Shown piece after piece: positions 14,501 to 46,713 of a stretch of DNA of 64,000 nt (position 1 is its first letter; every line of letters starts with the position of its first letter). Both the position numbers and the translations under genes were made by a program. The stretch comes from Candidatus Hermodarchaeota archaeon (GTDB lineage Archaea > Asgardarchaeota > Lokiarchaeia > Sigyniarchaeales > SOKP01). The notes below the pieces were generated by a model that made no database searches, had not been told where the DNA came from, and saw nothing but the letters and a program-made list of their open reading frames with translations. The stretch covers positions 23,727 to 87,726 of the forward strand of contig JBHLLG010000003.1 in the NCBI GenBank assembly GCA_048885925.1, written 5' to 3'.

Positions 14501-14522
14501 TATGAATTTTTTTCTAAATTAA
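5535..14522 (+). CDS. giant polytopic integral membrane protein (2,995 aa); no recognisable soluble or catalytic domain
   Basis: 8,988-nt uninterrupted ORF in ~20% GC DNA. The tracked start is TTG 5535, with an alternative ATG at 5547. The ORF track lists only four antisense ORFs (60-82 aa) inside it. The translation is F/I/L/Y/S/N-rich hydrophobic stretches separated by short K/R/E/N loops. Confidence 0.8.
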   Translation: MQWAMKADNNNSQEKIRKATELLQKSWWFSWFLIIAPLTTAIVGFFIFRLFRIEFYLALSFAVVVFMFALLLFYKAFDKYRNNPFFLDKTNNLKARIHIIFLISTLAFIATPIFILISPVGYSFITLPLISYALLYNIVYYYCYFQPLDFYDLNKGEFKHAQDFKLILKQPYNFLLFLNYIIHIIFLSITASTNFSWLYSLITNLFIYFITITSTKKQINEIDVLILEKKSFLKELTLYKLKLTISLINLIFILLIQLPFIVLITSILSGTHYSNIELVNSFFLSLIFILFYFKSRFYISFYYTSRLTVYEEAEKLKDVQERPPFLSNKYQKYNSYFSGLLILLIMLFSFLINIPVLILFILPFLYILFHYEQKSDLCSKKYNKYIILLNSFVILISICFGLLPQISEIFYINIQFISFLFLSYFALQLFAKFGYFNKDNIIIYQNIIGVSCFSIILYSFFPIVIFEYISFTSDPFIIFISNFLVHSILILIILLISFYVLYIRFFYAKRPKLFKVSVVANIFVIELILFILINLRIFYLVELFTFFQILILSTILFPLIFIIFVSINYFMGILPLKNFLLLTYYSFWMLILTVFLSISLTFFNNYIIITLDLLLLSILLHYNIKFGLNLDKITAKTFKKFVKVNSYLLTFELFFLFYNIFFVAFQALLLFDNIIYSTYLSLAIICTLINLFSKREIFSEALYIKINVFILLYSSIITFYFFLLLTLNTFYVLIIPILTSSIVLYIPILYLRKKKLCSNLTPKLLTFNSILLSITLALIPTIIGLDLFYLGIYFDLTFLIITIINFTLYILFLIFAIINYLSRKIKIREERLKFFLKFQLLTVFCTSATTIFYYPYFLLSETLYAIVFPLIFVCCFLYFPLYYSYKKSFFNIEDVKRIIILNTIILSCLLTTIPTLVGINFIYLGVIFDFNMFLLNILNFSIYIFYLFLLIISSLLKKFKIKENFILIVNQVHIIFLFIISITTVFFYPFLVLLESYYGIILPLIALLFSWFFLFYYSYKKEYFNLERVKKLTIYNFIIFSCLIISLPTIVSLEFIRIGLEVNLIFILTSSLFLLFVFLKISESLSVKIKLKEKFIKNFKLFAFISWFSFTLLISYYIASTFIAEIELTPITLLILSCSFFTFFTLSIYSLFLFSSYSAGLSYLKYFQDLIIYGIIISISFIFFFLILSVEFFVFLFIGPLLFNVSILIGSFFTIFLLILIIIDKIIEIRLSQLKIIIELISWLIIKILICLSTFSLFDFFTYQFFAYQFFMINKILLFSLIFLFLTPISLFILKSLKYLTTENQFLIKKIAVIIFIISILSIYSEILFNTMNLLPIFYQNFLFHITVFMVNLILFGYYFILIFNITVEERSVLKLFRFYILSFILFISLLYFGTILSIFLLLISFVIILSQRSSIPIFRFFSYFLLSFFTFIETIVILNTYAIIPGFDILMMNIFIILYLLSISGVLVFSILLNIKRNNNLEKISLYSLISLLSFVYLNSFTKILILYNITISAFILLLFIGINLYRQKDERYKWFINPCVLLFIFDFISFLSYSWFFNNPIFKLYNPILTFTLTLSMTGFGFILLYNKAPARFRKKSFLYVILPSIVFSFPTFLYFLIIAALSMPLWSVVPFIVAINFGVFLFYFSIGIYQWRISWTIWKSGWYAWNILPFVNFYIIYQNFTGIDVLTNSLQFGMFSVEGSLIISIIICSLFFLPVVYSKIKKYFSQIFFIIWGESLFLLYWISQNLFVDDILLRNLSFVLFSAILLMPILVGLKFWKILSILWVFPLTFINIWFISSYLISIGISFELAFSIDVLVIGLLLIVYSFFPNIRSVVVVLITAYFITLLGIFLTIYFVLYSLILNPYFAINMSFITVGFSLFSSKYVKLSKRIIDICLSWILIINFAWLTFNTLSLIPGLIMVAFSLALTVLGFSFFIFNRYKMKIPINKAIPYLILTIGASLSASSLISIIFKASPGILISVSFSVFILFLYFLITEYRFIIWLLIPIPITSPILEQIMRINFIKPFWLLTWSMLYLISFQVLINLFKNLVTEEKPEIKNSILKIFTDKNQVKQLNFTCFLLNSISISLFIAIFLPNLLKQIIFTELLLIYQICDFLIIWSFSFLICMKYVEKSELNIRIKNLMHYFAKISFILYLLIPFALGINLYLYLVFMKAEFLISLYLVLLLFSAVMFIENFFLDKNYFYLLFNSTRNQFTLGSWLIFSNILALFLYLFHLNVFLLILTISLLNIVSIYFLSHLDISKTKISTSYLILIYNSFIWSSFYIASLISDGLVFIFEELRGFTYYSLLFQNAFLLLFVFSYFFIKFEKNLKNWIEFIFFIIFQGLLVVNLILILVIYNYLNVLTINIIILIETCLSFKPINSVNIILPEQKYPNFLTKISSILVLLLYIEVSMTIYGLLIGFIGMLESILISLSLLFFLTFADIYSIKKVRKSYASLVHSVSFFTISFMLFLIINRLVSQYPLLLSVEIFIFLIMQFYTNYSLFASLKNFSPNKKEDLKKVQLYIQHLLGIGFYLTLCSFILQSLILQRFELQLILLILSVVVHALMIIDNFLLKFIGKTSNYIKVISWIFIMTFTATYLIWLYSTYFITSFFTVIPIIIIILILEVAYLFRLLIFWPIIISKKEKIRFFLINLTYLNFITWPLYFARLNAFLMLNLILFSFLITVIITYIDETIGVLREKTRKSLKSYSFLIFGSLLTIDVFILLGFIPHFDILLNVSISSLLFITFIVIKVKPFKEHSFIAFGFWMAIFLLLSLFIYRISLSWIFGVVVLGLTILIYPFVFLLEELRELFNRFIDNLINLFRMIKTIVRNLVINIVNFIKLYFKSILIIVNMFLSIFLGILLSPAILNILNWIHSILLIFPFFGLLYSFIPTKKSKDVDITFKRHMYRLIISWGSIIVVLFAFITPIWYIFTIWISIWIVGAILLPYISFKEKSENISIKWRFYTLILLIILLILFGILFGTQIYMNFFLN
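7821..9035 (+). repeat. three tandem ~135-aa (about 405-nt) four-helix modules inside the giant membrane gene
   Basis: Copies start at aa 763, 898 and 1032. They share the skeleton '..LS..L..IPT..G...YLG..FD....NF..YI..L' followed by 'TT.FYYP..LL.E..Y.I..PLI' and then 'YYSYKK..FN.E.VK+'. Copies 1 and 2 align clearly. Copy 3 is decayed. Confidence 0.7.
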
Positions 14523-19881: not shown

Positions 19882-21342
19882 ATGTCAGCTCCTTTAGAAA
19901 TATTATTGAGAGATGCTCGAATTGATCTCGTTTTAGCTCGAATCGAGAAAGATGAATCTATTATAAATGAGATAATAAACCATATAGATAACAATATTAG
20001 ATCGATTAAATTCAATGCGATTCATGTATTAGGAGAATTAGGCCAAAAATCTAAAAACAGTATCTCAAAATTGAGGAAATGTTTAGAAGATGATGATTGG
20101 AGTATTAGACGTGAAGCTGTTAGATCCTTAGGAAAGATTGGAGAAATTGCTAAAGATACAATTCCACAGGTATCGATAATGCTAAAAGATAAAGAAGAAT
20201 CTATTAGAAGTGAAGCAGCAATTTCACTTGGTAAGATTAAGAATCCGACTAATGAAGCAATTTCAAGTTTAATTGAAGTATTAAATGATAATTCTGAAAT
20301 TGTCCGAACTGAAGTTGCTAAAGCTCTCGGTGAAATAGGGGCAGATGCATATGAAGCAATTCCATTTCTTATGAAAAGCCTTAAAGATGTAAGTTGGACT
20401 GTTAGAACTTCCTCAGCTCAATCAATTAGTCAGATTGGGAAAGGATCTACCAAAGCCATACCAAGTTTAATAAAAGCACTTGAAGATAAAGATTGGAGAG
20501 TAAGATTCAGAGTCTCGAATACTTTAGCAGAATTAGGAAAGGAAGTAATTCCAAATCTTGTATCTATATTACACCATAAAGATAAATTTGTAAGAAAGTG
20601 CGTAGTAGATATATTGGGAGAAATGAAACTAACAGATCAAAATATAATGGACAATATCTCAAAACTATTACATGATAAAGCCGAAATCGTTAGAGGGAAA
20701 GCTGCTGATGCTCTTAGGAGTATTGGCAAAGACGCTGTTCCCATTTTAAATAGAGAAATTGAATCAGCATCTTTAAAAATGAAAAAAATCATAATTTCTG
20801 CACTTGGAGGTATTGGTACAGACGCTAAAGAAGCGATTCCAACTCTTATCAGTTTATTAAAAGTGCCTGAACAATTATATATTGAACATATGCTTGGAAT
20901 GGGTTTATGGAAGGTTATTTCTTATAAGTCTAAACATTCAATTTTAACTTTTATAAACGATCCCTTTAGAAGAAATGTATCAGTTAGAGTAGAAGTAGCA
21001 AGAGCATTAGGAAAAATTGGAGTAGATTCAGAAGATGCTATCCGTGCTCTTGAATTTGCTTTGTATGATCCCAGAAGTATTGTACGACGTGAAGCTGCAC
21101 TTTCTTTAGGAAAATTAGGATTATTAGCAAAAAATGCAGTTCCCAGTTTAATTAAAAGTTTACAAGATAAAAATCCAGATGTAAGATGGAGATCATCTGA
21201 AGCATTGGGAGTATTAGGCGTTAATACCGAAGAAGTTATATCAAGTTTGAATGAATTAATCCATGATGAATGTGATTTCGTATGTGAATCTGCTATTAAT
21301 GCATTAGATGCATTAACCGAAGAAGAACAAAAATATTATTAG
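19882..21342 (+). CDS. HEAT-repeat protein (PBS-lyase/HEAT-like repeats, about 13 copies)
   Basis: Repeated ~31-aa units ending in '..VR..A..ALG.IG', for example DWSIRREAVRSLGKIG, SEIVRTEVAKALGEIG and NPDVRWRSSEALGVLG. Starts 11 nt after livF with GGGTGAT upstream. Confidence 0.8.
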   Translation: MSAPLEILLRDARIDLVLARIEKDESIINEIINHIDNNIRSIKFNAIHVLGELGQKSKNSISKLRKCLEDDDWSIRREAVRSLGKIGEIAKDTIPQVSIMLKDKEESIRSEAAISLGKIKNPTNEAISSLIEVLNDNSEIVRTEVAKALGEIGADAYEAIPFLMKSLKDVSWTVRTSSAQSISQIGKGSTKAIPSLIKALEDKDWRVRFRVSNTLAELGKEVIPNLVSILHHKDKFVRKCVVDILGEMKLTDQNIMDNISKLLHDKAEIVRGKAADALRSIGKDAVPILNREIESASLKMKKIIISALGGIGTDAKEAIPTLISLLKVPEQLYIEHMLGMGLWKVISYKSKHSILTFINDPFRRNVSVRVEVARALGKIGVDSEDAIRALEFALYDPRSIVRREAALSLGKLGLLAKNAVPSLIKSLQDKNPDVRWRSSEALGVLGVNTEEVISSLNELIHDECDFVCESAINALDALTEEEQKYY

Positions 21343-23129: not shown

Positions 23130-23217
23130 TTTAAAACTTTTTTATTTTAAATTTTCCTTTTTCCATTTTTTCATAAAATCTGTAAAATCATAACTAGAGA
23201 TTCCGAGAGAATTAAAA

Positions 23218-23237
23218 TTTTTTTTTTTTATTTTTTT
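23218..23237 (+). terminator. T-rich tract (T12-A-T7) downstream of the CoA-ligase gene
   Basis: Seen directly. More oligo-T runs follow immediately after the stop at 23129. The region lies between convergent genes. Confidence 0.3.
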
Positions 23238-23533
23238 ATCAGATTCAGATTTATCTCTTAAAGACTCCTGCCAATCATAATAACTTATAGCTTTTGACAT
23301 GATCTTATAACCATAATTATAATAAATAAACTAATACAGAGTACCAGTTTTCTAATAGTCAAAGAAATAATACAAATTTGTCTATTTAGATTTAAGCATT
23401 ATATTCCATAATACGTACCAAAAGAACAAAAAATTGAAATTAGTAAATAAATTTAAGGGAAAACTTTCATAGGTTATTTAGAAGGGAGATATACGACAAA
23501 AATATTCAGATTTTACATTTTTCAAAATATATT

Positions 23534-24538
23534 TTATTCACTTATAATAGAATATACGTGTTTAGGTCGTCCTGCTTTTTCGCGTTTAATTATTTCCTCT
23601 TTTATTACCCGTTCTTTGACTAAAAATTCAAGGATCTCTCTTAACTTTGCACCAGATATTTTAGATTTAATAACCAATTCACGAGTTTTAACTTTTTCTT
23701 GGTTTTTAATGATGTCTAAAATGTTCTGAATAGGATCTGGATTAATCTCAATTGATTTAATACAAGTTTTTGCATCAAACATTTTTCTCACACTAATTGC
23801 CATATTCGGCATATAGAATCCGTTAAAATGAAAATATGAATCATCAATGAATAAAACCGAATTAAAGTAATAATCTATTAGAATTACTCCCTCATTGACG
23901 ATTAAATCATTGAATCTTACTAATCGACATGCTTTTTCATTTGTTTCAATGATTTCTACTTTAATATTTTTTAAAATATCTGTTATATATCCAAAATAGT
24001 TATCAATTGATTCAAAATCTAATTTTGAATAATAAAGTTTAATTTTAATTCCGTTCAAAAAAGCTCTGTTTAATCCTCGCTCTAACTTTTTCAAAAGGGA
24101 TGGTGGAAGAGAAGAAAGGATGATCTCACTTTCTGCTTTATCAATTAATTCATATATATATTCAAGACCAATATTTATATCAGAATGATGATAGAACGTG
24201 ATATTTCGGGTACAAATCCCTTTTACACTTTCTAATGCTTGAATACCTTCCTCAAGTTTATGTATTCTTTCCAGAATAGTATTATTTTTCTTCTTTAATA
24301 TTTCTGTTAATATGATTTTTGGGTTACTTCTAAAATACATTTTTGGTTTTCCATCTGAAGCAGTTATGAATCCATTATTTTCTAGATATCTTAAATTATC
24401 CCTTACCACAGCATAGGAATAGTCTAAATCATTTTTGATTTGACCAATACTTCCAAAATGATTATTTAACAAATAATCATAAATTTTAATTTGTATATCA
24501 GATAATCCAAATTCATTAAGAAAGTCTAAATTATGCAT
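23534..24538 (-). CDS. TrmB-family-like transcriptional regulator
   Basis: N-terminal winged-HTH 'LSDIQIKIYDYLLNNHFGSIGQIKNDLDYSYAVVRDNLRYLENNGFI', followed by a helix (ILERIHKLEEGIQALE) and a ~200-aa effector-like domain, as in full-length TrmB. The last ~60 aa look like a second wHTH (GAKLREILEFLVKERVI...GRPKHVYSI). Confidence 0.5.
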   Translation of the reverse strand: MHNLDFLNEFGLSDIQIKIYDYLLNNHFGSIGQIKNDLDYSYAVVRDNLRYLENNGFITASDGKPKMYFRSNPKIILTEILKKKNNTILERIHKLEEGIQALESVKGICTRNITFYHHSDINIGLEYIYELIDKAESEIILSSLPPSLLKKLERGLNRAFLNGIKIKLYYSKLDFESIDNYFGYITDILKNIKVEIIETNEKACRLVRFNDLIVNEGVILIDYYFNSVLFIDDSYFHFNGFYMPNMAISVRKMFDAKTCIKSIEINPDPIQNILDIIKNQEKVKTRELVIKSKISGAKLREILEFLVKERVIKEEIIKREKAGRPKHVYSIISE

Positions 24539-28880: not shown

Positions 28881-31289
28881 TTAAATGAAGCATGATAAAT
28901 CTGTTTGAAGCGATTTCTTATTATAATCTAAAGTTAATAATTCTTCAAGCTCAGGGAACTTAAAAGGAAAGATGTTTTCAAAAGCTCTTTTTAGAAGTTC
29001 AATGTACTTTCTTTTATCATACTGGTGCTTTTTTGGATTATACAAATCTGAAAGGATAACTTTCTTTTCAGGAAAATTCGGATCCGCATCAGCGTTAAGA
29101 ATAATATATCTCACATTCTTTCCAGCAGACGCTACAATACCTGAGCGTTCTAACTGTCTTGCGGCTACAGCTTGATAAGAATTTACTTTGTATGCTGATG
29201 GCTTTCGGGATATTTTTTGACGGATAGAAAGTTCATCTCTGGATACTTTCCCCGAACAAATTCGTTCTACATATTCATAGAGCTTTTCCATTGCTTGTGG
29301 AATTCTTTCTATAAATTCATTGACGGTTTTTGCACCTTGAAAGACATCAATAAAGGCATATTGAGCATCTTTTACAATTTTGGGTATATCTCTGCGTCTC
29401 ACTTCAATACCTCTCACCTTGACCTCGCCATTGCTTTTTATCCCCCAGTAATGACTAAGGGCTGGTACCTCTGGTTCTGCTCGAGAAGGCAAGAAAACGA
29501 TAACATTGAATCTTCCCTCCCAACTCATAGGAATACTTGTGCTTTTAGATATTTCTTCAGCAATTTTTCTTGTTAATTTCTCAAATTCTTCTGGATTTCT
29601 TCCTTTTTTGTCTTGGATCCACATGGAATCAACAATTCCATGGACAATTTTACAATCATAATTTTTAGCAATCTCGACGGATCTCAATAAAAATTCACGA
29701 GCGAAGGCACAAACTGTTTGATGAGCCTCAATTTTTCCAAAACGGGCGTTTTTAAATCCTAAATATCCAAAACTTACAACAAGTACCCATTTTAATGCAA
29801 TATCGGTAAATTTGTATCGAAGATCGTCATGAGTCTTATTATATGCTTTACACTCTAAACGCTTTCTTAATGGTAAACTAATTGATTTCGAAATAATCCC
29901 CTCTCTTTTCGAACAAATATGAAAATCTAGACCAGGTACTTTAATCCCTGTACCATCATCTTTACAGCATTTGCAATTAATCGTTTCTGAAGAAATATTA
30001 AAGTTAGCCATTAGGGAGGGATACATTGAGGAAAAGTCTAACTCTATCACTTGATCAAAAACACCTATTAATGGTTCAAATATATGCCCACCTCGGTCAT
30101 TTTTGATCAAATCCATTCCACTTCGAAAACCTTCTGGGCTCTTCTTGAAAGGTGGGATAAGGTGATTTAGTTTATAGGCATTATAGTATTGTATCGATTG
30201 AAGAGCGCCCCCGATTGTTACTCTACATAATCTTTGCAATGGAACTCGAGATACTCTTGCAACCTCAATAACACCTGGTATATTTCCCTCGCTAAAGTGT
30301 AAGCTACCGTAAGTTGTTGTGTCTAAATGAAAGCGTCCTGTAAAATAAACTTGTGTTTTGGAACGTCGCATTATTATTCCGTAAGACATATAATGATCAG
30401 AGTTTCCTGAAAGATTGAAGATACACTTTCCGAGTGGCGTTTTTGTGCGAGAAAAATAGAGATCGCTTGATACACGATTCACTGATGCTCGAGCTGCCAA
30501 GTAAGGAAACACAAATTCATCTCCTCCATGTGTTAAAATAATGTCTGGATCTAAACGCTCAATCACTTTACTAATTGATTTGATGGTTTCTGCTTCATCA
30601 GCTTTGTCAATTAGAACTTTTCTTTTTCTCTGTCCATCAGCTCTCGGTATGTTGGCTTTTTCGTCTTTTTCAACAATACTAACTTCCGCACATATCAGCG
30701 GGTCGTTGAAATATGATCTCATTCCATGTTGCTGTATTTTAATATCCAGCCACACAGCTTTTAAAGGTGGTAACTCGTAAAACAATTCTTCGTTGTTGTC
30801 TTTTAGCTCTAATGAAATTAAACGCATTAATTGCCCGTCACCCTTTTTATTCTTTTCAGAATTAACCTTGAAACAACATAAAGACATTGGAAATAAATCA
30901 TTTACATAGAAATACATTTGCGAGATTGGAAGATCCGTATTATATAGAGTAAAAAGACCGATTTCATCTATTTCCTTAATTGTTTTCTTAAATACAGAAG
31001 GTTTTACTACAGAAACTCCTAATATTTTTACTTTTTCATGATCCTCTAACTTCACATATTTTTCACAGATTCGGACATCCTTTACATTGGGGTGTGATTT
31101 GAGAATTTGTCTTAATCTCTTGAAATCGTTACCCGTATGTCTTTTTGGTACTGCAAAAAATTCTGGACAGAATTCATGAAAGATTTTTAAAACCTTTTGT
31201 TCCTTTAAAGTTTTTACCCAAAGGATAACTCCCTTATGATAAGTTGAAACATCTAAAAGCCAGCCATCAAATTGATCTTGATAATCCAA
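28881..31289 (-). CDS. polB: family-B DNA polymerase, divergent (exonuclease and palm motifs degenerate; PolB2/Dpo2-like?)
   Basis: Archaeal PolB N-terminus 'GWLLDV', 'ERLDPDIILTHGGDEFVFPYLAARA', motif A 'DFSSMYPS', 'NISSET' and 'VRGIEVRRRD'. Four canonical motifs are altered. Exo I is 'LDIKI' instead of FDIET. Exo II is 'GGDEFVF' instead of NGDNFDF. Motif B is 'KWVLVVSFGYLG' instead of K...NS.YG. Motif C is 'VHGIVDS' instead of YGDTDS. TTG start. Confidence 0.8.
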   Translation of the reverse strand: MDYQDQFDGWLLDVSTYHKGVILWVKTLKEQKVLKIFHEFCPEFFAVPKRHTGNDFKRLRQILKSHPNVKDVRICEKYVKLEDHEKVKILGVSVVKPSVFKKTIKEIDEIGLFTLYNTDLPISQMYFYVNDLFPMSLCCFKVNSEKNKKGDGQLMRLISLELKDNNEELFYELPPLKAVWLDIKIQQHGMRSYFNDPLICAEVSIVEKDEKANIPRADGQRKRKVLIDKADEAETIKSISKVIERLDPDIILTHGGDEFVFPYLAARASVNRVSSDLYFSRTKTPLGKCIFNLSGNSDHYMSYGIIMRRSKTQVYFTGRFHLDTTTYGSLHFSEGNIPGVIEVARVSRVPLQRLCRVTIGGALQSIQYYNAYKLNHLIPPFKKSPEGFRSGMDLIKNDRGGHIFEPLIGVFDQVIELDFSSMYPSLMANFNISSETINCKCCKDDGTGIKVPGLDFHICSKREGIISKSISLPLRKRLECKAYNKTHDDLRYKFTDIALKWVLVVSFGYLGFKNARFGKIEAHQTVCAFAREFLLRSVEIAKNYDCKIVHGIVDSMWIQDKKGRNPEEFEKLTRKIAEEISKSTSIPMSWEGRFNVIVFLPSRAEPEVPALSHYWGIKSNGEVKVRGIEVRRRDIPKIVKDAQYAFIDVFQGAKTVNEFIERIPQAMEKLYEYVERICSGKVSRDELSIRQKISRKPSAYKVNSYQAVAARQLERSGIVASAGKNVRYIILNADADPNFPEKKVILSDLYNPKKHQYDKRKYIELLKRAFENIFPFKFPELEELLTLDYNKKSLQTDLSCFI

Positions 31290-31292
31290 TCT

Positions 31293-31574
31293 CTAACCTT
31301 TTTCTTCTATCAATTCTTCTAACTTTTTTACCTTCTCCTCTAACTCCTCAATTCTTTTTTCTTGTTCAACTGCAAAGGAGATAAATAAGACTTCTGACAG
31401 CACCGGACGGGCACTCATACTACCTGCATCAGCATGAATTCGAGCGAAGTTCATTAATTTATCAAAAATTTTCTGTTCTTCAGGGCGTAGAGCTCTTTTG
31501 AAGTCTTTCCAGCTTTCGATCTCATGCTCCAAGGCAGGTCGAAAAGAGGGTACCGTTCTTCCCATATCTTTCAC
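31293..31574 (-). CDS. hypothetical 93-aa protein with a C-terminal coiled coil, closely spaced upstream of polB
   Basis: MKDMGRTVPSFRPALEHEIESWKDFKRALRPEEQKIFDKLMNFARIHADAGS..., ending in EELEEKVKKLEELIEEKG. Its TAG stop (31293-31295) lies 3 nt before the polB TTG start. Confidence 0.6.
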   Translation of the reverse strand: MKDMGRTVPSFRPALEHEIESWKDFKRALRPEEQKIFDKLMNFARIHADAGSMSARPVLSEVLFISFAVEQEKRIEELEEKVKKLEELIEEKG

Positions 31575-31688
31575 TTTAATTTAAGGTAAAATCCAAAAAA
31601 GAGAGTATTGCAGTAAATTAAAAAAAAAATACAATACCAGTTTTCTGATTTTTAAATCTAATCATCGTTTAATAGATGATTTTAAAGA

Positions 31689-31829
31689 TTAATTTTCTTT
31701 TCCTTGGCATTCCGGACAAACAATCTCATCAAAATCTTCTAAATCACTTCTCCAGAAAAAAACTTTGCCTTTCCCTTTGCAAATTTTACATTTTTCCACA
31801 TCTCCTTTTGGATATGCGAAATAGCTCAA
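31689..31829 (-). CDS. small zinc-ribbon ORF (46 aa)
   Basis: Hand-translated: (L/M)SYFAYPKGDVEKCKICKGKGKVFFWRSDLEDFDEIVCPECQGKEN. It has a CxxCxGxG...CxxC pattern. Possible starts are TTG or an internal GTG only. Below the ORF-track cut-off. Confidence 0.3.
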   Translation of the reverse strand: MSYFAYPKGDVEKCKICKGKGKVFFWRSDLEDFDEIVCPECQGKEN

Positions 31830-32006: not shown

Positions 32007-32417
32007 ATGAGTAAAGATTTGAAAAAATGGCATGCACCCTGTGGAATTTTCTGCAAAAGATGTCCGGGAGTAAAATCTTTTGGATGTAGGGGATGCAGAG
32101 AGCAAGAAGGTCAAATACGTAAGTTTCCAGTTTGTAAAACCTATAAATGTTGTATAAATAATAGATATGAATTTTGCTATGAATGTGAAGATTTTCCATG
32201 TGAAATGTTAGAACCTATTGTAAATTTTGAAATTTTCACACCACATAATTCCAAAGTATATAATTTGATTATGATAGAAAAGTTAGGGTTAGAAGAATGG
32301 AATAAAATATGTGATGCCAAAACTAATCTTTACTATAATGGTCGCAAGATTCAATACGGTGGAGATCAATTAACTTTAGAAGAAAAAGATCCGAATATGT
32401 ATAAAAAAAAGAATTAA
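32007..32417 (+). CDS. Cys-rich DUF3795-like protein
   Basis: 'PCGIFCKRCPGVKSFGCRGCREQEG....PVCKTYKCCINNRYEFCYECEDFPCEML' matches the DUF3795 cysteine spacing as I recall it. Confidence 0.55.
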   Translation: MSKDLKKWHAPCGIFCKRCPGVKSFGCRGCREQEGQIRKFPVCKTYKCCINNRYEFCYECEDFPCEMLEPIVNFEIFTPHNSKVYNLIMIEKLGLEEWNKICDAKTNLYYNGRKIQYGGDQLTLEEKDPNMYKKKN

Positions 32418-33573: not shown

Positions 33574-33987
33574 ATGGAAAAGATAATACAAGATATATGG
33601 ATACTAAATGATGCTGGTGCGGTTCTATTTAACCGTGTTTTTGAAAAAAAAATTGATGAACAATTAATTGGAGCTTTGATGTCAGCATTGAATCTATTAG
33701 CAGAAGAATTAGAAAGAGGAGGCTTATCTAATTTTCAGCTTAAAGAAAAAAAATATTTTATTATGAAACAACATGGAATATCTTTTATAGTTAATTCCTC
33801 AAAAAAGACTAAAGAGAAAAAAGTTAATGAAGAATTGAAAAGTATAGTAAATAAGTTCTTCAATTTATATCCAAAAGAGATGCTTAATACTTGGGACAAT
33901 GATATAAGTATATTTTCTGATTTCGAAAAGCATATTGAAGATAGTTTACAAGATACTATAGATAAATTTGAAAAAGCTTTTTGGTAA
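33574..33987 (+). CDS. small cytosolic protein with a longin/roadblock-like pattern
   Basis: The inferred secondary-structure order is beta-beta-alpha-beta-beta-alpha. The segments are IQDIWILND / GAVLFNRVF / DEQLIGALMSALNLLAEELE / LSNFQLKEKKYFIMKQ / GISFIVNS / helix. This is fold-level inference only. Confidence 0.35.
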   Translation: MEKIIQDIWILNDAGAVLFNRVFEKKIDEQLIGALMSALNLLAEELERGGLSNFQLKEKKYFIMKQHGISFIVNSSKKTKEKKVNEELKSIVNKFFNLYPKEMLNTWDNDISIFSDFEKHIEDSLQDTIDKFEKAFW

Positions 33988-33991
33988 TATT

Positions 33992-34741
33992 TTAAAACCA
34001 CACGTCAAGAGTCATATTTCGTAAGGGTACCTTTTTCTTAGGTTTACGAAGTTTCCACTTTTTCAGCCTATTTTCTGGTAAGTAAGGATGTTGAACAAGC
34101 GTATATTCGACATATCTCTCATCATCATTTATCATTACCAGCACATTTCCAAAATGAGAAAGAATTTTACCTCCTTTTGGTCTGAAGAGGGAATGTTCAT
34201 GTAAGGGTGCCGTTATTATAATGAGAGGTTTTGTTTTCCAGAGCATCTGTTTAATTCCATCTATCGCCCTTAGCAATTCTTCGAAAGTTTGCTTTTCATA
34301 GCCTTCAAATAGAGTTGTAATCCCAGAGATAAGTACAACTTTCACATCTTCAAGCATTGAAAGCTTATTCTCCAGAATCTCAATTATTTGGTCAAAAGTA
34401 AAGGCTCGTGAAATAAGGATGTTTTCTAACGCCATACGAGGGGACAGGTTTTGAGTGACTGCAAATTTGCTTACGTTGTAAGGGTTAAAATGATTATTTC
34501 CATCGATAAAGGCAACTCTAATACCCTCTCCAAGTCCTCCATTGTCAAACGCTTTTTGAACGATAACTGCCGTTGTTAATAAGATATTAGTTGTTAATTT
34601 CTTATCTCCATAAAGTAAATAGACTAAATCTCTGTGGAATCCGCCAGAAAGCAACTTATTGAGAGTCTTATCTCCGCTAGAAATGAGGTGCGAATGATTG
34701 TTTCTTTCATGTACCGTGAATCCAGAATCAAACGTCATCAT
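33992..34741 (-). CDS. RecA/RadA-superfamily paralog with a degenerate Walker A motif
   Basis: It is collinear with the RadA/RadB core. Matching motifs are 'SSGDKTLNKLLSGGF', 'GGLGEGIRVAFIDGNNHFNP', 'LENILISRAFTFDQ', 'VKVVLISGITTLF', 'PKGGKILSHFGNV' and 'HPYLPE'. The P-loop position reads 'LLYGDKKLTTN' instead of G..G.GKT. Confidence 0.5.
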   Translation of the reverse strand: MMTFDSGFTVHERNNHSHLISSGDKTLNKLLSGGFHRDLVYLLYGDKKLTTNILLTTAVIVQKAFDNGGLGEGIRVAFIDGNNHFNPYNVSKFAVTQNLSPRMALENILISRAFTFDQIIEILENKLSMLEDVKVVLISGITTLFEGYEKQTFEELLRAIDGIKQMLWKTKPLIIITAPLHEHSLFRPKGGKILSHFGNVLVMINDDERYVEYTLVQHPYLPENRLKKWKLRKPKKKVPLRNMTLDVWF

Positions 34742-34822
34742 ATGAAGTAACTATTCTTCAAAATAAAACAAAGATACACCGACAATTTTCTGAAATAAAT
34801 CCAATTTCTCCATAAGACAATT

Positions 34823-39379: not shown

Positions 39380-39942
39380 ATGGTAAAATTACGGAGAAAG
39401 TTACTAAATCATTTATTTATAAAGTTTGTATAGTAGGAGACGGTGGAGTAGGTAAAACCAGTATGGTTTTGAGATATTGTGAGAACACCTTTAAAGAAAA
39501 TTATATAATGACTATTGGTTCTAATTTTTCGACAAAACAAATAGAATTAGAAGATTATCCAAACTATCTCATTCGCCTACAATTATGGGATCTTGCTGGA
39601 CAAAAACATTTCAGCTTTGTTCGCCCACCATTTTATCGTGGTGCTAGTGCGATTGTATATACATTTGACATTACGCGAAGAAGTTCATTTCAGAATATTT
39701 TAAACTGGAAGAGTGAAGTGGAAAAAGTAATCGGTGATGGTAAACCAAGTATTTTAGTTGGAAATAAATTCGATTTAGCAGAAAAGGGGAATAGGGAAGT
39801 AGGAGAAGGAGATGGAGAAGCATTGAAGGATGAGATTAATGCTTTAGCTTATTTTGAAACTAGTGCCAAGGATGATATTAAAGTTGAGCCTGTATTTAAA
39901 ACAATCACAATGGCAATTTTAGAACACACCAAAAAAATATAG
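39380..39942 (+). CDS. Rab/Ras-like small GTPase (N-terminus out of frame with its only nearby ATG)
   Basis: G1 'GDGGVGKTS', switch I 'TIG', G3 'WDLAGQ', G4 'GNKFD' and G5 'ETSAK'. G1 lies upstream of the tracked ATG (39463). The GTPase frame is open from 39367 but has no ATG, GTG or TTG before 39463. ATG 39380 joins the frame only by a -1 shift in the A4 run at 39385-39388. Confidence 0.8.
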
Positions 39943-41361: not shown

Positions 41362-44300
41362 GTGTTGAGGCTAATGGAAGAGAGAAGGGAAGAAAATTTC
41401 GATAAAGAATTTGATGAGGATGAGTTCGATCCAACAAAGGAAGCATTCTTTTCGGATATGATAGAAATGGAAGAAGAAATTGCTTCTGAAGCATATGAAT
41501 TAGTTGAGCATGCTATCAATCTAATAGAATCACAATATTACAACGATAGTATTGAAATTTTACGTCAAGCAATTGGATTATATACTCAAATTAACAGAGA
41601 AGAAGAGATTAAAGCTATAAATGATAAAATAGCAGAAATATATGTACTTAAAGAAAAAGCATTCAGAGAAGTTGAAATTGAATCTGAAAAAGCTGCTGAA
41701 CCCGTAGAAGTACCTGAAGTAATTGATAAAAGTTCAATATTTGAAAAACAAGAGGTAATGAAAGAGTTTGAAGCAACTGAAGAGTCTAAAGCAATTGAAG
41801 AACATAAAGTGTTAAAAGATGCCATAAAGATTGCTGATTTAATGATCAATGCGGAAAATTTGTTAAAAGAAGCTCAAGAGTTAATTAACAACAATTATTT
41901 CGAAGAAGCGCTCAGTAAATATGATGAAGTGGAAACAATTTATACAGAATTAGGAAAATCAAGTGAGATAGATAATTTATACAAATTAATTGAAGATTGT
42001 TATAACCGAAAGGCTAAATTCTTACGAAGTATTAAAAAAGAAGAAATTAGAGAAGAAATAGACACGAGTGTAAAAGTGGAAGCACAATCAACAGAAGATC
42101 TTTTAAAGGAAAAAAGATTAAAGGAATATTTTGAAAATAAAAAGAGAGAAGAGGAGATCTCCTCTAAAGCTTACCAATTACTTGATAAAGCAGCTGAATT
42201 AACCACACAGCACAAATATGACAAAGCTTTAGAATTTTATGAAAAAGGAGCTAATTTATTTGGAGAATTAAATTGGACATATGAAGTTAGAAAAGTTCAA
42301 GATACGATTTTTCAATTAAAAATAGAAAAAGCAAGATATATACAAAGGCTAGAAGAGGAAAGAATGAAACCAGAGAAAGTGGTTGAAACTAAAGAAGAAA
42401 TTACTGCGCAACAGGTAACAGAAATTGAGGAGCAGGATAGAATTGCTCAAATAGAAAAGTTAAGAGAAATAGAATTTCAAAAAATGGAACAAGAATTTTT
42501 TAAAGCTCAAATTGATAATATGGCCACTGAAGCTGCTAGAATGGCACGTGAATATGAATTAGCTATGCAAAAAGCGATTAAGAAAGGAGAACTAGAAGAA
42601 GAATGTATTTACCCAAAAGTCATTGAAATTTATAAAAAAATAAGGGAATTACTTGTTGATAAGGGATGGAATAAAGAAGCAACGATCTATGATGATACGA
42701 TAGATATCTATATTCAAAAGTTTGAACAAGATAAAAGAATTAGGCAAATAGAAGCTGAAAAAATCAAAAAGCAACACGAAGCTGAAAAGATGCTGAAACT
42801 AAAAAAAGAGGACATTGAAATTCACCTCAGCGAAGAACAAATAAAAGCTAAAGAGATGCAACAACAAAAAGAGATAGAAATACAAAATGTTCGAAATCAA
42901 TTAAATGATATGTCAAAAAGAGCTGATCGGTTAGCAAGAGAGTATGAGCTTGCATTAAGAAAAGGTAAATTTGAGTTAAAATGTCCTTATCCTCAGATAA
43001 TTAATATATATAAGAAAGCTAAATATATGGCACAAGAGAGAGGATGGGATACAGATATAGCAATTTTTTCAAGTCAAATTTTTACATATAAAGAAAAGTT
43101 AGAAAAAGATAAAAAGTTAAGAGAAATAGAAGCGGAAAAAGCACGGAAACAAGAAGAAGTTGAGAAGGCTTTTAAAGTTAAAAGAGAAGAACCAAAAGTT
43201 TCTTTAGATATCGAGAAGTTAAAATTATTAGAAGAACAAAGAAAATTAGAAGAAGAAAAAGAAGATTTTGAGGATATGGTAAATGCAATGATAAATCGAG
43301 CAGAAAAAATTGCTCGAGAATATGATACAGATATGAAAAAAGCCATAAAGAAAGGTAGATTGGCACAAAATCCTCCATTCTTAAAGATCATAAATATTTA
43401 TGAGAAAGTAAAACAAATGTTCCTTGAAAGGGGTAGAAATGAAGAAGCAATTGCTTATGGGAATCAAATAAATTTTTATTCTCAAAAATTAGAACAAGAT
43501 AATAAATTACGAGAAGTGGAAGCCAAAAAAGCTGAAAGGGAAAAAGCACTAGAAGAAATGCATAAAGTTGATAGAAAAGTTGAAATAGATGACCAAAGAT
43601 TAAAAGCTTCAGAGAAAAAAAAGGAAGAAGAAGAATTTGAGAAATTTATTTCTGAAAATGTCAATATGGCAGAAAAGATGGTACGAGATTTTGAAATTGC
43701 TATGCGAAAAGCTTATAGAAAAGGGGAAATATTGGAAACTACACCATATTCTAAAGTTATCGACATTTATAAAAATCTTCAAGAGAAAGTCTATGCTAGG
43801 GGTTGGAGAGAGCAATCTGAAGTATACATAAATCAAATTAAAATTTATCAAGATAAATTAGAAAAACATGAAAAATTGTTAGAAGTTGAAGTTCAAAAAG
43901 CTCAAAAGGAAAAAGGATTAGAAGAAATGCATAAAGTAGAAAAGGAGAGTGAAGCTGATACAAAAAGATTGAGTAAAATTGAAAGAAAAAAAGAAGAAAA
44001 AGAATTTGAGAAAAATATTGCTGAAAATGTCAGTATAGCAGAAAAAATGGTGAGAGATCATGAAATTGCTATGAGAAAATCATATCGAGAAGGAAAAATT
44101 CTAGAAAGCACACCATATCCAAAAGTTATTGAAATATATAAAGAAATTAGAGAAAAAATTTATGCTAAAGGTTGGAAAGAACAAGCAAAAGTATTTGCAA
44201 ATCAAATAAAAATTTATCAGGAGAAGTTAGATAAACATAAAAATCTCCTTGAAATCGAAGCTCAGAAAGCACAAAAACAAAAAGAACTAGAAGAAATGCA

Positions 44301-46713
44301 TAAAGTAGAAAAGAAGAGTGAAGCTGATACAAAAAAATTGAGCATTATTGAAGAAAAAAAAAAAGAAGAAAAAGAATTTGAAAAGCATATTTTAGAACTG
44401 GTTAATAAAGCAGAAAAACTAGAACGAGAATTTGATTCATCTCTGAAAAAAGCGATAAAAAAAGGTAAGGTAATTGAGTTAACACCATATCCAGAAATAA
44501 TTGAGATATATAAACAAATTAAAGATGAATTGGATGAGAAGGGCTGGGTAGATCAATCGCAAATTTATTTAAACCAAATAAAAATCTATCAGGAGAAATT
44601 AGACAAGCATAAAATTTTGCTTGATAAAGAATCAGAAAAAGCAGAAAAAGTAAAAGAACTTGAAGAACTGAAGAAGGCAGGTAAAAAAGAAGTTAAACCA
44701 TTCAAACCAGAAAGAATTAAAGAACTTGAAGCTGAAAAAGAGGAGGACATATTATTAGACAAAGCGATGAGTCTTATTGATGAGACAGAAAAAGAAGTTA
44801 AAAGTTATGAATTAAGCATAAGGAAAGACATTTTGATGTATGTAAGTCCTTATGAGAAAGCAATCTTTAATTATGAAGAAGCAAGAAAATTATTCCAAAA
44901 AATTGGATGGATTGATGAGGCTAATCGATTAATTAAAACTATCAAATTTTACAAGGATAAGAAAGAAAAAGATGATAAATTAAGAGAGATTGAACAAAAG
45001 AAGTTAGAGAAACCAGAAGTTGAATTAGAAGCTGTAAAGATAGAACTTGATAAGGATTTTCTTGAAAGTCAGAAAAGATTAAGAGAATTTGAAAAAAAAG
45101 AAAAAGAAGCCGATGAAAAAGCAGTTAAAGTATTGTCTTTAATTCAAAATGCTGAAAAGATGGCTCAAGAATATGAATTAAAACTAAAATCGGGAATATT
45201 TGATTATGAAGCACCATATGAAAAAATTATTGAGATTTATCGTGTTGCTCGCAAAAAATTTGAAGAAATAAATTGGAAAGAAGAATCAGCGAAATTAATA
45301 GATACAATAAATTTTTATAAAGAAAAATTAGAGCAAGATAAGAAGATACGAGCTTTGGAGCTTGAAAAAGTAAAAAAGCGGGAAAAAGAATTACTCCTTC
45401 AACAAAAATTATTAGAACAGGCACGCCAAGAACAGGAAAGATTACTGCAAAAGCGAAAAGAATCTTTACAAGTAAAAAAAGAACGTATTGCACAATTTGA
45501 GACGGAGAAAGATAAAGCATTTCGTTTAATGGATCAAGCTAAACGTGAATTAAGACTTAATAATTTTGATGAAGCTATTGATATTTATAAGGAAAGTGAA
45601 AAAATGTTTATAGATATGAAGTGGGAAGAAGGAATTATGATGGTTAGAGATTCAATTACAATGATTATTAATAAGAAAAAAGCTTATGAGCTTGAACAAA
45701 AAGCAGTAGAAGAAAGAAAAGTTGAAGAGCTTGAGTTTGAAGAAAAATTAGAAGAGAAATTAGCTGAAGCGCGCGAAGTAAGAAAAAAGCAACAAGAAGA
45801 GAAACGAAGAGAATTTTTAAAAGTTCAGAGGGAAAAAGAGCGAGAAGAAAAAATCTCAGATGAGGCATATCAACTTTTAGAAGAAGGTACAAATTTTATG
45901 GACCGTAAAAAATTCTCTGAAGCATTCGAGAAATATATGGCAGCAAGAGACTTATTTGAAGAAATAGGGTGGCAAAGAGAGGTTTCAAGAATTAATAACG
46001 AGCTCCTATTTAAACTTAAAAGAGAAGAAAAACAAGCTGAGATTCTAGAAGAAATAAAGTTGAAAAAAATTGAAGAGGAGAAAGAATTAGAATTAATAAA
46101 AGAAGAAACGAAAAAAGAACATGAAGAAATGGAAAAGAAGAGAAAAGAAGAAAAAAGAAAGCTTGTAAAGGAAGAATATGACAGAAAAATAGCTGTTCAA
46201 CTCAATAAAGCAGAAAAATTAATAGAAAGTTATAGGTATAATGAAGGGATTGTAATAATCAAAGAAGAAATCCAAAAATTAAATATACCAGAAAAGGAAT
46301 CTGAAATTAAAGAACTTCATGAAAAAATTGAAAATTTAGGAACCCTTTCTCATATTCCATTAATTACTATTGAAATATCAGGTGAAGAAATTCAAAATGC
46401 GAATTTTAAAGCAGCTTATACTGCATTAGATGAAGCTCAAATATCTATAATCAATAAAAATTACAAGAAAGCTATATCTGAGTTAAACGAAGCAAAATAT
46501 AATCTTGAAAAGGTTAAAATTGGTAAAAGATTTGTAAAAGAGATTGACGAAAAAATTGATCAATACAGAGAAAAACTTGGAAGAAAACCAAAAGAACCAG
46601 AAATTGAAGTACTCACTGACGAAGAAACTCAAAAGATTAAAGCAAGAATCATTGCTAGAAGGGAATTGAGGAGAAATAAGGTTTTAGATCTTTTAAAAAA
46701 AAGTTCAAAATAA
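41362..46713 (+). CDS. giant (1,783 aa) helical repeat protein: about 15 TPR/MIT-like modules separated by E/K-rich helical linkers
   Basis: 5.35-kb ORF (GTG 41362 or ATG 41374) with a purine-rich coding strand. The recurring module is 'AE+.AREYE.A.+KA.KKG.....PYP.II.IYK.....L...GW..........QI..Y.EKLE.D+KLREIEAEK'. Shorter modules of the form 'A..LL..A......Y..A...Y..A..LF.E.GW' sit at both ends. Confidence 0.8.
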   Translation: MLRLMEERREENFDKEFDEDEFDPTKEAFFSDMIEMEEEIASEAYELVEHAINLIESQYYNDSIEILRQAIGLYTQINREEEIKAINDKIAEIYVLKEKAFREVEIESEKAAEPVEVPEVIDKSSIFEKQEVMKEFEATEESKAIEEHKVLKDAIKIADLMINAENLLKEAQELINNNYFEEALSKYDEVETIYTELGKSSEIDNLYKLIEDCYNRKAKFLRSIKKEEIREEIDTSVKVEAQSTEDLLKEKRLKEYFENKKREEEISSKAYQLLDKAAELTTQHKYDKALEFYEKGANLFGELNWTYEVRKVQDTIFQLKIEKARYIQRLEEERMKPEKVVETKEEITAQQVTEIEEQDRIAQIEKLREIEFQKMEQEFFKAQIDNMATEAARMAREYELAMQKAIKKGELEEECIYPKVIEIYKKIRELLVDKGWNKEATIYDDTIDIYIQKFEQDKRIRQIEAEKIKKQHEAEKMLKLKKEDIEIHLSEEQIKAKEMQQQKEIEIQNVRNQLNDMSKRADRLAREYELALRKGKFELKCPYPQIINIYKKAKYMAQERGWDTDIAIFSSQIFTYKEKLEKDKKLREIEAEKARKQEEVEKAFKVKREEPKVSLDIEKLKLLEEQRKLEEEKEDFEDMVNAMINRAEKIAREYDTDMKKAIKKGRLAQNPPFLKIINIYEKVKQMFLERGRNEEAIAYGNQINFYSQKLEQDNKLREVEAKKAEREKALEEMHKVDRKVEIDDQRLKASEKKKEEEEFEKFISENVNMAEKMVRDFEIAMRKAYRKGEILETTPYSKVIDIYKNLQEKVYARGWREQSEVYINQIKIYQDKLEKHEKLLEVEVQKAQKEKGLEEMHKVEKESEADTKRLSKIERKKEEKEFEKNIAENVSIAEKMVRDHEIAMRKSYREGKILESTPYPKVIEIYKEIREKIYAKGWKEQAKVFANQIKIYQEKLDKHKNLLEIEAQKAQKQKELEEMHKVEKKSEADTKKLSIIEEKKKEEKEFEKHILELVNKAEKLEREFDSSLKKAIKKGKVIELTPYPEIIEIYKQIKDELDEKGWVDQSQIYLNQIKIYQEKLDKHKILLDKESEKAEKVKELEELKKAGKKEVKPFKPERIKELEAEKEEDILLDKAMSLIDETEKEVKSYELSIRKDILMYVSPYEKAIFNYEEARKLFQKIGWIDEANRLIKTIKFYKDKKEKDDKLREIEQKKLEKPEVELEAVKIELDKDFLESQKRLREFEKKEKEADEKAVKVLSLIQNAEKMAQEYELKLKSGIFDYEAPYEKIIEIYRVARKKFEEINWKEESAKLIDTINFYKEKLEQDKKIRALELEKVKKREKELLLQQKLLEQARQEQERLLQKRKESLQVKKERIAQFETEKDKAFRLMDQAKRELRLNNFDEAIDIYKESEKMFIDMKWEEGIMMVRDSITMIINKKKAYELEQKAVEERKVEELEFEEKLEEKLAEAREVRKKQQEEKRREFLKVQREKEREEKISDEAYQLLEEGTNFMDRKKFSEAFEKYMAARDLFEEIGWQREVSRINNELLFKLKREEKQAEILEEIKLKKIEEEKELELIKEETKKEHEEMEKKRKEEKRKLVKEEYDRKIAVQLNKAEKLIESYRYNEGIVIIKEEIQKLNIPEKESEIKELHEKIENLGTLSHIPLITIEISGEEIQNANFKAAYTALDEAQISIINKNYKKAISELNEAKYNLEKVKIGKRFVKEIDEKIDQYREKLGRKPKEPEIEVLTDEETQKIKARIIARRELRRNKVLDLLKKSSK
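43552..44660 (+). repeat. three tandem 369-372-nt coding repeats with long near-identical stretches
   Basis: 'GAAGAAATGCATAAAGT' recurs at 43552, 43921 and 44290. 'GAATTTGA' recurs at 43633, 44002 and 44374. Copies 2 and 3 share 53 of 55 nt from 43921 and 44290. Confidence 0.85.

Follow-up and report, generated by a model that had tools for sequence, protein, structure and literature searches.

The window analysed here, a stretch of 64,000 nucleotides from the assembly of a Candidatus Hermodarchaeota archaeon (GCA_048885925.1, contig JBHLLG010000003.1), carries on its reverse strand the genes of a PolB2/Dpo2-type family-B DNA polymerase (polB2), of the small protein PPB2 directly upstream of it (ppb2), and, 2.7 kb upstream, of a RadA/Rad51-like protein with both Walker motifs lost (iRadA). 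These genes, their C-terminal motifs, and associated upstream features are listed in Table 1. The junction of ppb2 and polB2 reads TAG-AGA-TTG (stop, spacer, start); iRadA and ppb2 are separated by three genes on the opposite strand, for a DUF3795 protein, a membrane protein, and a longin-like protein. The window is AT-rich, with a guanine-cytosine (GC) content of ~29%, and the GC content at the locus is like that of its surroundings.

Table 1 Features of the PolB2 locus and associated upstream elements. Positions are those of the window; aa, amino acids; nt, nucleotides; ORF, open reading frame.
Feature	Coordinates	Strand	Description
polB2	28881..31289	(-)	802-aa PolB2/Dpo2-type family-B DNA polymerase, TTG start; exonuclease site dead, polymerase site of HxxxD type
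ppb2	31293..31565	(-)	90-aa PPB2 (arCOG07300 / DUF8156, PF26485), ATG start, MGRTVPSFR...
iRadA	33992..34738	(-)	248-aa inactivated RadA/Rad51-core protein; N-terminal domain absent; Walker A and B lost; start at conserved second ATG
PolB2 C-terminal PCNA-binding-like motif QTDLSCFI, aa 795-802	28884..28907	(-)	conserved in clade as Q[KRT]D[LM]SCFI; putative PCNA contact
iRadA C-terminal PCNA-binding-like motif NMTLDVWF	33995..34018	(-)	conserved in clade as [KR]NxT[LI]DxW[FI]; putative PCNA contact
Upstream box of ppb2-polB2 unit AATCAGAAAACTGGTATTGTAT	31629..31650	(-)	followed by T-rich TATA-like stretch at ~31625-31614
Upstream box of iRadA TTTCAGAAAATTGTCGGTGTAT	34774..34795	(-)	52-53 nt before first in-frame ATG/NTG codon (34741), 14/14 loci; ~55 nt before ATG 34738
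52-aa Lokiarchaeia-specific ORF	23142..23300	(-)	same box upstream at 23334-23357

PolB2 is recognised in Pfam by DNA_pol_B (PF00136, 1.3e-25) and DNA_pol_B_exo1 (PF03104, 3.2e-11). Its best PDB matches are Thermococcales PolB (phmmer; Pfu PolB, 1.4e-39); eukaryotic PDB matches are ranked Pol alpha, delta, epsilon, all far below archaeal PolB. A family-B fold had been read from the letters of the window in a model-made note (the original prediction), and the landmarks and motif strings quoted in it were each located once, in the expected place: GWLLDV, residues 9-14; DIK, 182-184; DPDIILTHGGDEFVFPYLAARA, 247-268; GGDEFVF, 255-261; DFSSMYPS, 418-425; NISSET, 431-436; KWVLVVSFG, 500-508; VHGIVDS, 549-555; SHYWG, 612-616; RGIEVRRRD, 626-634. 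In the phmmer alignment to Pfu PolB, Exo II pairs NGDSFD with GGDEFV, so that Asn and Asp are replaced; motif A (DF..LYPS) is retained; motif B pairs KLLANSFYG with KWVLVVSFG; motif C pairs YIDTDG with HGIVDS (H550-G-I-V-D554); the KKRY region pairs KKRY with LSHY. The register proposed for these five motifs is supported by this alignment, which recovered neither NxxxFD nor DTD and confirmed the substitutions in Exo II and motif C. Exo III, reported as not evident, is indeed absent, because its would-be segment is deleted (net loss of ~35-45 residues against Pfu and Pab PolB). A profile of the clade aligned well to P. abyssi PolB at Exo II and in the polymerase domain and unreliably at Exo I, where the register of DIK is tentative and the position is not conserved in the clade. 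The exonuclease catalytic residues of PolB2 are all lost.

A full HMMER scan of 1.84 billion representatives returned 3988 relatives; motif counts are given for the best 150 of these plus the window protein (151 in all), the 150 scoring >306 bits each against ~140 bits for Pfu PolB. The clade consensus is DFxSMYP at motif A (D418 in 150/151), KW[ILV]LV[TVC][CS]FG at motif B (K500 in 150/151), [LIV]H[GA][IL][VT]DS at motif C (H550 in 136/151, D554 in 151/151), and N[RH]Y[YFW]G in the KKRY region. The first DxD position is never Asp, and neither DxD nor the Exo II Asp pattern occurs in any of the 151. PolB2 keeps both metal-binding aspartates (D418, D554) and the motif B lysine K500. Ratios of nonsynonymous to synonymous substitution (dN/dS) of ~0.03-0.1 were obtained for polB2, ppb2, and iRadA between the window and 17 related Lokiarchaeal genomes (rough values, as dS is saturated, and far below 1); all three proteins are under strong purifying selection. 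The motifs had been described as eroded: the substitutions stand and the loss of the exonuclease is genuine, but motifs near-invariant across 151 sequences, together with dN/dS far below 1, mark a conserved alternative active site and not decay.

The same type of site is on record, the invariant YxDTD of PolC having been described as 'mutated into HxxxD in PolB2' (Feng et al. 2022, PMC8764526). Timinskas et al. 2025 (PMC11791011) reported a D(K/R) motif in the loop that leads to motif A, with an FxxA segment resembling the Rad51 oligomerisation motif ahead of it. Both are present here: the window protein reads D398-R-G-G before motif A (D398 and G400 each in 151/151), and ahead of D398 an FxxA-like segment (E386 in 144/151, then F388-K/R-[TS]-A/G) reads FRSG (E386-G-F-R-S-G391), its G being common to 28/151. 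The best NCBIfam models, NF004416 and NF004418, likewise rank first for PolB2 fragments published from Acidianus, Archaeoglobus, and Methanomassiliicoccus, that of Archaeoglobus passing the NF004416 cutoff; PolB1/B3-type models score far lower. In BLASTP, PolB2 is 67% identical to Lokiarchaeota MBN1214924 and 32% to the PolB2 of Methanomassiliicoccus; against Acidianus (Sulfolobales) PolB2, identity is 38% across 221 aa in the palm and fingers (1e-43). The placement in the Dpo2 group, based on score gaps, signatures, and gene context, agrees with the affinity suggested in the original prediction and with an assignment that was already published.

Two further observations concern the polymerase family. 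A CxCC...C cluster of PolB2 (C439, C441, C442, C459) is kept in 143-149 of the 151 representatives and is matched by Pfu PolB only at C442 and C459; it may be a PolB2-specific metal site or an extra disulfide at the fingers/palm junction. A second Lokiarchaeial PolB2 lineage is represented by L020 (Promethearchaeum sp.), with iRadA directly upstream of PolB2 and PPB2 not detected, and by L021 (Harpocratesius repetitus), with neither partner detected; it is only 39% identical to the window protein, so that Lokiarchaeia hold at least two distinct PolB2 types.

The small ORF upstream of polB2 extends mechanically over 31293..31574(-), 93 aa from a GTG. The 3-nt gap to the polB2 TTG stands as originally given; the length of 93 aa does not. 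Conservation across 585 homologues begins exactly at Met4 of the mechanical ORF and annotated homologues are 90 aa long, for which reasons the ATG at 31565 is most likely the start of ppb2. The protein begins with the arm MGRTVPSFR (Arg3, Arg9), residues 1-21 are invariant in 21 homologues, and an identical database protein carries PF26485/DUF8156 as precomputed annotation. Scans of NCBIfam and of a Pfam copy that lacks the PF26485 model gave sub-threshold noise only (Csx1_HEPN, 0.074; TatA, 0.019), and no mention of DUF8156 was found in the literature. In BLASTP, PPB2 is 78% identical to Lokiarchaeota MBN1214923 (1e-42), 46% to the Methanomassiliicoccus protein (2e-19), and 41% to that of Halorubrum (3e-17); of Acidianus PPB2, the arm alone matches (0.002). 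The AlphaFold2 (AF2) monomer (predicted local distance difference test, pLDDT, 79.5) has a disordered coil arm, helices at 8-17, 20-25, and 28-46, and a long C-terminal helix at 52-89; it would fit the published 'pillar and capital' trimer. What had been called a coiled coil is, in this monomer, the helix 52-89.

Gene order was compared by iterated searches with hidden Markov models across 80 loci of species-representative genomes, drawn from Lokiarchaeia, Bathyarchaeia, Thorarchaeota, Hadarchaeota, and Thaumarchaeota as well as several bacterial phyla. PPB2 lies directly upstream of PolB2 in 19/19 loci of the Lokiarchaeal clade and in 38/53 other archaeal and bacterial loci; an xG[RK][TS] arm is present on PPB2 in 17 of the 19 and in 35 of the 38, respectively. 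The proposal of a co-expressed, possibly obligate small partner is supported by this arm and this position, and, as the small ORF is conserved next to homologues of the polymerase, the partner is real.

A variant order is seen in L026, L029, L030, and L044 (Bathyarchaeia) and in L058 and L075 (bacteria), with PPB2 ~2.5 kb upstream of PolB2. In the Bathyarchaeia variants and L058, iRadA adjoins the polymerase and a ~1.6-kb gene of no assigned family lies between PPB2 and iRadA; in L075, iRadA is further upstream than PPB2.

The third partner, iRadA, was missed in the original prediction. The ORF spans 33992-34741(-) mechanically and matches Pfam Rad51 at 2.9e-15; NCBIfam RadA/Dmc1/Rad51 models match at 1e-14 to 1e-16, far below their cutoffs. 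The protein aligns from residue 113 of 349 of P. furiosus RadA (1pzn), i.e., past the RadA N-terminal domain. Walker A reads YGDK-KLTTN against GEFGSGKTQ (GSGKT replaced by K-KLTT), and Walker B reads VLISG against LIVDS (Asp replaced by Ser). BLASTP identity to the published Lokiarchaeota iRadA MBN1214925 is 67%, and the window protein is, judged by its sequence, orthologous to published iRadA despite its separate location. In most other lineages the order is iRadA-PPB2-PolB2 with iRadA adjacent (38/53); adjacency of iRadA and PPB2 is found in 0/19 loci of the clade, 14 of which have iRadA elsewhere within 5 kb, either 0.9-5 kb upstream on the same strand, mostly with opposite-strand genes between, or convergent downstream (L012, L016).

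The association of polB2 with its partner genes was published in 2013-2014 (Makarova et al. 2014, PMC4104785); its conservation with PPB2 (formerly arCOG07300) and iRadA was described by Timinskas et al. 2025, who modelled PolB2, iRadA, and three PPB2 as a heteropentameric mutasome in 40 species (PMC11791011). In their models the MGRT arm of PPB2 (Arg3, usually Arg9) inserts between PolB2 and iRadA beside the DNA (PMC11791011). Dpo2 of Sulfolobus, described as the smallest PolB2, is a robust, exonuclease-free polymerase that extends mismatched and lesion-opposed primers (PMC8764526), and it is required for damage-induced mutagenesis (PMC8764526, PMC11791011); data on damage-inducible expression and on activity of PolB2 are limited to Sulfolobus (PMC8764526, PMC6061795).

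On the evidence above, we would assign a probability of about 0.88 to the reading that the locus encodes the three subunits of an archaeal PolB2 mutasome (PolB2, PPB2, and ATPase-dead iRadA), a Dpo2-type damage polymerase system; by sequence comparison, all three proteins are orthologues of published components. By analogy with Sulfolobus, PolB2 would be an active, proofreading-free polymerase extending mismatched or lesion-opposed primer ends in translesion synthesis. Following the published models, a PPB2 trimer would dock on PolB2, one MGRT arm (R3, R9) would lie between PolB2 and iRadA near the DNA, and iRadA would bind the segment E386-G-F-R-S-G391 just before the invariant D398-R-G-G; the C-terminal PCNA-binding-like (PIP-like) motifs of PolB2 and iRadA would probably tether the complex to PCNA. 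The gene arrangement suggests co-transcription of ppb2 and polB2. The TTG start of polB2 falls 0-5 nt past the ppb2 stop in 16/18 clade loci, and polB2 may be translated by coupling from this conserved weak TTG abutting the ppb2 stop; a weak coupled TTG would leave PPB2 in excess of PolB2, consistent with the modelled 3:1 stoichiometry. iRadA would form a separate transcription unit, perhaps, speculatively, co-regulated through a shared upstream box.

Among other explanations, the one that survives best, and is still improbable, is a catalytically dead polymerase homologue with a structural or regulatory scaffold role only, as in the 'inactivated PolB' of Rogozin et al. 2008 and Makarova et al. 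2014 (PMC4104785 for the inactivation hypothesis). The dead exonuclease site and the replacement of the first DxD Asp, of the motif B Asn, Ser, and Tyr, and of the KKRY lysines would all be expected of it; 150-151 of 151 relatives, however, keep the Asp of motif A, the second Asp of motif C, and the Lys of motif B, which argues against a pure scaffold, as it would not need these metal ligands and this lysine, and Sulfolobus Dpo2 with the same HxxxD is a robust polymerase needed for damage-induced mutagenesis (PMC8764526, PMC11791011). That the gene belongs to a mobile element (casposon, plasmid, or provirus) and is not a chromosomal repair gene is very improbable: PolB2 is known to have been transferred horizontally among archaea and into bacteria (PMC11791011), and bacterial homologues were recovered in the locus sample, but the locus sits among housekeeping or Asgard-typical genes, the 16 flanking ORFs scanned include no Cas1, no integrase, and no other gene of mobile elements, flanking synteny is kept across many metagenome-assembled genomes (MAGs) of the clade, and the GC content does not stand out. 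A canonical replicative PolB (PolB1/PolB3) whose motifs were misread in a wrong register is scarcely credible. The B-family architecture and full length of 802 aa do resemble the best-matching Thermococcales PolB, but the substitutions in Exo II, motifs B and C, and KxY are borne out by HMMER alignment with Pfu PolB, 0/151 clade members have DxD or the Exo II Asp pattern, PolB1/B3-type NCBIfam scores are far lower, and the PPB2 and iRadA partners are PolB2-specific.

Several points weigh against the mutasome reading itself. The activity of an Asgard PolB2 is extrapolated from the much shorter Sulfolobus Dpo2, 38% identical over palm and fingers, and complex formation from a published model of a complex that is 67-78% identical. 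The AF2 model of PolB2 is unusable (mean pLDDT 47.7; shallow alignment, 22 sequences at >=79% identity), and Foldseek gave no significant PDB match for PPB2, so that the reported sigma-factor-like fold was not reproduced. iRadA does not share an operon with ppb2-polB2 in the window; with 2.7 kb and three opposite-strand genes between, co-expression is not guaranteed. The PIP-like motifs of PolB2 and iRadA, conserved as they are in the clade, are short, and in that of iRadA Asn replaces the canonical Gln.

The mutasome reading was set against known systems. With the PolB2 mutasomes of Sulfolobales and other lineages the locus shares the same three families, HxxxD, D(K/R)GG with the FxxA-like segment, the MGRT arm, the lost iRadA Walker motifs, and PPB2 immediately upstream of PolB2. 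Sulfolobus Dpo2 is roughly 550-630 aa long; the window PolB2 differs from it in being full length and retains both its N-terminal domain and the greater part of the exonuclease fold. Unlike in other mutasome loci, iRadA is never adjacent to PPB2 in the clade, and no orc1/cdc6, SRAP, or DUF72 gene is among the 16 flanking ORFs scanned. Both PolB2 and iRadA of the window end in PIP-like motifs. A C-terminal clamp-binding motif on iRadA is in general frequent, not universal, and the occurrence of such motifs in both proteins is published as infrequent (PMC11791011).

Thermococcales PolB (Pfu, Tgo, KOD; the PolB3 group in the nomenclature of Makarova) is alike in domain order, and motif A and the fingers and thumb can be aligned; it differs in having its own active exonuclease (DxE / NxxxFD / YxxxD) and canonical KxxxNSxYG, YxDTD, and KKRY, and it is a replicative or gap-filling enzyme without PPB2 or iRadA partners. 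E. coli Pol V (UmuD'2C-RecA) was drawn as an analogue by Timinskas et al. 2025, in that a translesion polymerase uses an oligomerisation-like motif to engage a protein of the RecA/Rad51 family, the N-terminal arm of a small subunit reaches in near the active site, and the sliding clamp is bound; its catalytic subunit is of the Y family, however, its small subunit is a dimer of unrelated fold, its RecA is an active recombinase, and homology to the mutasome is limited to RecA/RadA. Eukaryotic Pol zeta (Rev3-Rev7 dimer-Pol31-Pol32) is likewise an exonuclease-free B-family, damage-induced, multisubunit 'extender', but has other accessory subunits, and no specific sequence affinity to it was seen in the PDB matches.

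The system is already known, Lokiarchaeal clade included, because the complex MBN1214923-25, 67-78% identical to that of the window, was modelled in 2025 (ranking score 0.858; PMC11791011); the window is an ordinary member. The main finding therefore adds little to what has been described of PolB2, its small partner, and iRadA. It does correct annotation, as the NCBI records read 'DNA polymerase domain-containing protein' and 'hypothetical protein'. Possibly new are only a promoter box and a 52-aa protein. The uncoupled iRadA, the two PIP-like tails, the TTG coupling, and the box shared with the 52-aa protein could offer a first entry to the wiring of Asgard DNA-damage responses.

The box was found upstream of both ppb2 and iRadA. 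In 20 loci ppb2 is preceded by a conserved aaaAT(C/T)AGAAAA(C/T)T..GTAT, with a T-rich TTTTAAT after it; in 14 loci iRadA is preceded by TT(C/T)AGAAAATTGTCGG.GTA, nearly free of variation, and then TTTTATTTT. The distance from the iRadA box to the first in-frame start-type codon, which precedes the conserved ATG by one codon, is constant at 52-53 nt. The box lies ~20-25 nt upstream of the TATA-like T-rich element. The 10-mer TYAGAAAAYT is present in 13/20 ppb2 and 13/14 iRadA regions against ~4 of ~215 other upstream regions of the same loci. With a joint matrix, the three top scores in the 64-kb window belong to the sites of iRadA (19.1) and ppb2 (18.5) and to 23344-23357(-) (15.6), the next score being 13.3; the third site is ~45 nt upstream of the 52-aa ORF. 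The pattern AGAAAAY-N7-9-GTAT matches exactly these three sites in the window (0.68 expected), with 21 matches in clade loci against 4 in 61 other loci. When 14-nt matrices from one promoter class were scanned on the other, detection did not reach significance (0/20 and 1/14 exceeded the 99th background percentile), and the short core alone shows no enrichment in the AT-rich window; the core common to both box classes is only ~10 nt, and orthologous promoters are non-independent samples.

The Orc1-2 element of Sulfolobales, A(N)TTTC, occupies positions -44 to -39, ahead of the B recognition element (BRE) and TATA box (PMC5817253, PMC6061795). The Lokiarchaeal box is similar in position, and the reverse complement of GAAAAT fits the hexamer; the orientation differs. 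Identity of the two is not claimed and is kept as a lead only, as the resemblance is too weak: five specified bases are too little in a genome of 29% GC.

Conservation of the 52-aa ORF (MSKAISYYDW...NSLGI...FTDFMKKWKKENLK; annotated as hypothetical, ACFE9I_02630) extends to 14 clade loci, in most of which the box precedes it. In L012 and L016 the ORF and ppb2 are divergent; in L011 and L014 the ORF is tandemly duplicated. Its 59 homologue clusters all have Asgard-type names (Lokiarchaeia/Promethearchaeota-like) where named, and no Pfam family matches it. It is possibly a member of the same regulon.

The 52-aa ORF is adjoined by the gene (23534-24538(-)) of a regulator of the TrmB family that bears an additional Lrs14-like winged helix at its C-terminus. 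Synteny of this gene with polB2 holds in ~11 of 19 clade loci, synteny among close relatives being weak evidence. This regulator is a candidate reader of the box.

A wider proposal, which we consider doubtful and offer tentatively, is that the mutasome genes of the clade are split into units (iRadA; ppb2-polB2; the 52-aa gene) joined by the box AT(C/T)AGAAAA(C/T)T..GTAT; the box would then be an Asgard DNA-damage regulon element, positionally analogous to the Orc1-2 A(N)TTTC element and perhaps read by the TrmB-family protein, and the 52-aa protein would be a new damage-response factor.

The domain scan of the 16 flanking ORFs gave acyl-CoA ligases, Sir2, a proteasome alpha subunit, a Ras-like GTPase, and GH20; the flanking synteny kept in many MAGs of the clade comprises TM183, GyrI-like, TrmB-like, acyl-CoA ligase, and Sir2 genes. 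In 13/19 clade loci the Cys-rich DUF3795 gene (32007-32417(+)), encoded on the opposite strand, separates iRadA from ppb2, and it is the sole intervening gene in L013 and L017; the association may merely reflect shared ancestry. A 36-aa zinc-ribbon ORF (31689-31799(-); MEKCKICKGKGKVFFWRSDLEDFDEIVCPECQGKEN, two CxxCxGK motifs) closely precedes the ppb2 promoter and shares its strand; it is conserved in 6 clade loci (55-68% identity), at varying distance from ppb2. Asgard-typical 'eukaryotic signature' genes nearby are those of the longin-like protein (33574-33987(+); Fuz_longin_1, 3.9e-5, below the Pfam cutoff), a Ras-family small GTPase (39463-39942(+); 3e-39), and a HEAT-repeat protein (19882-21342(+)). 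Two giant ORFs are present in the window, of 2995 aa (5535-14522(+)) and 1783 aa (41362-46713(+)); the former sits in an AT-richer stretch (21-24% GC against ~30% elsewhere) in which GC and AT skew are reversed.

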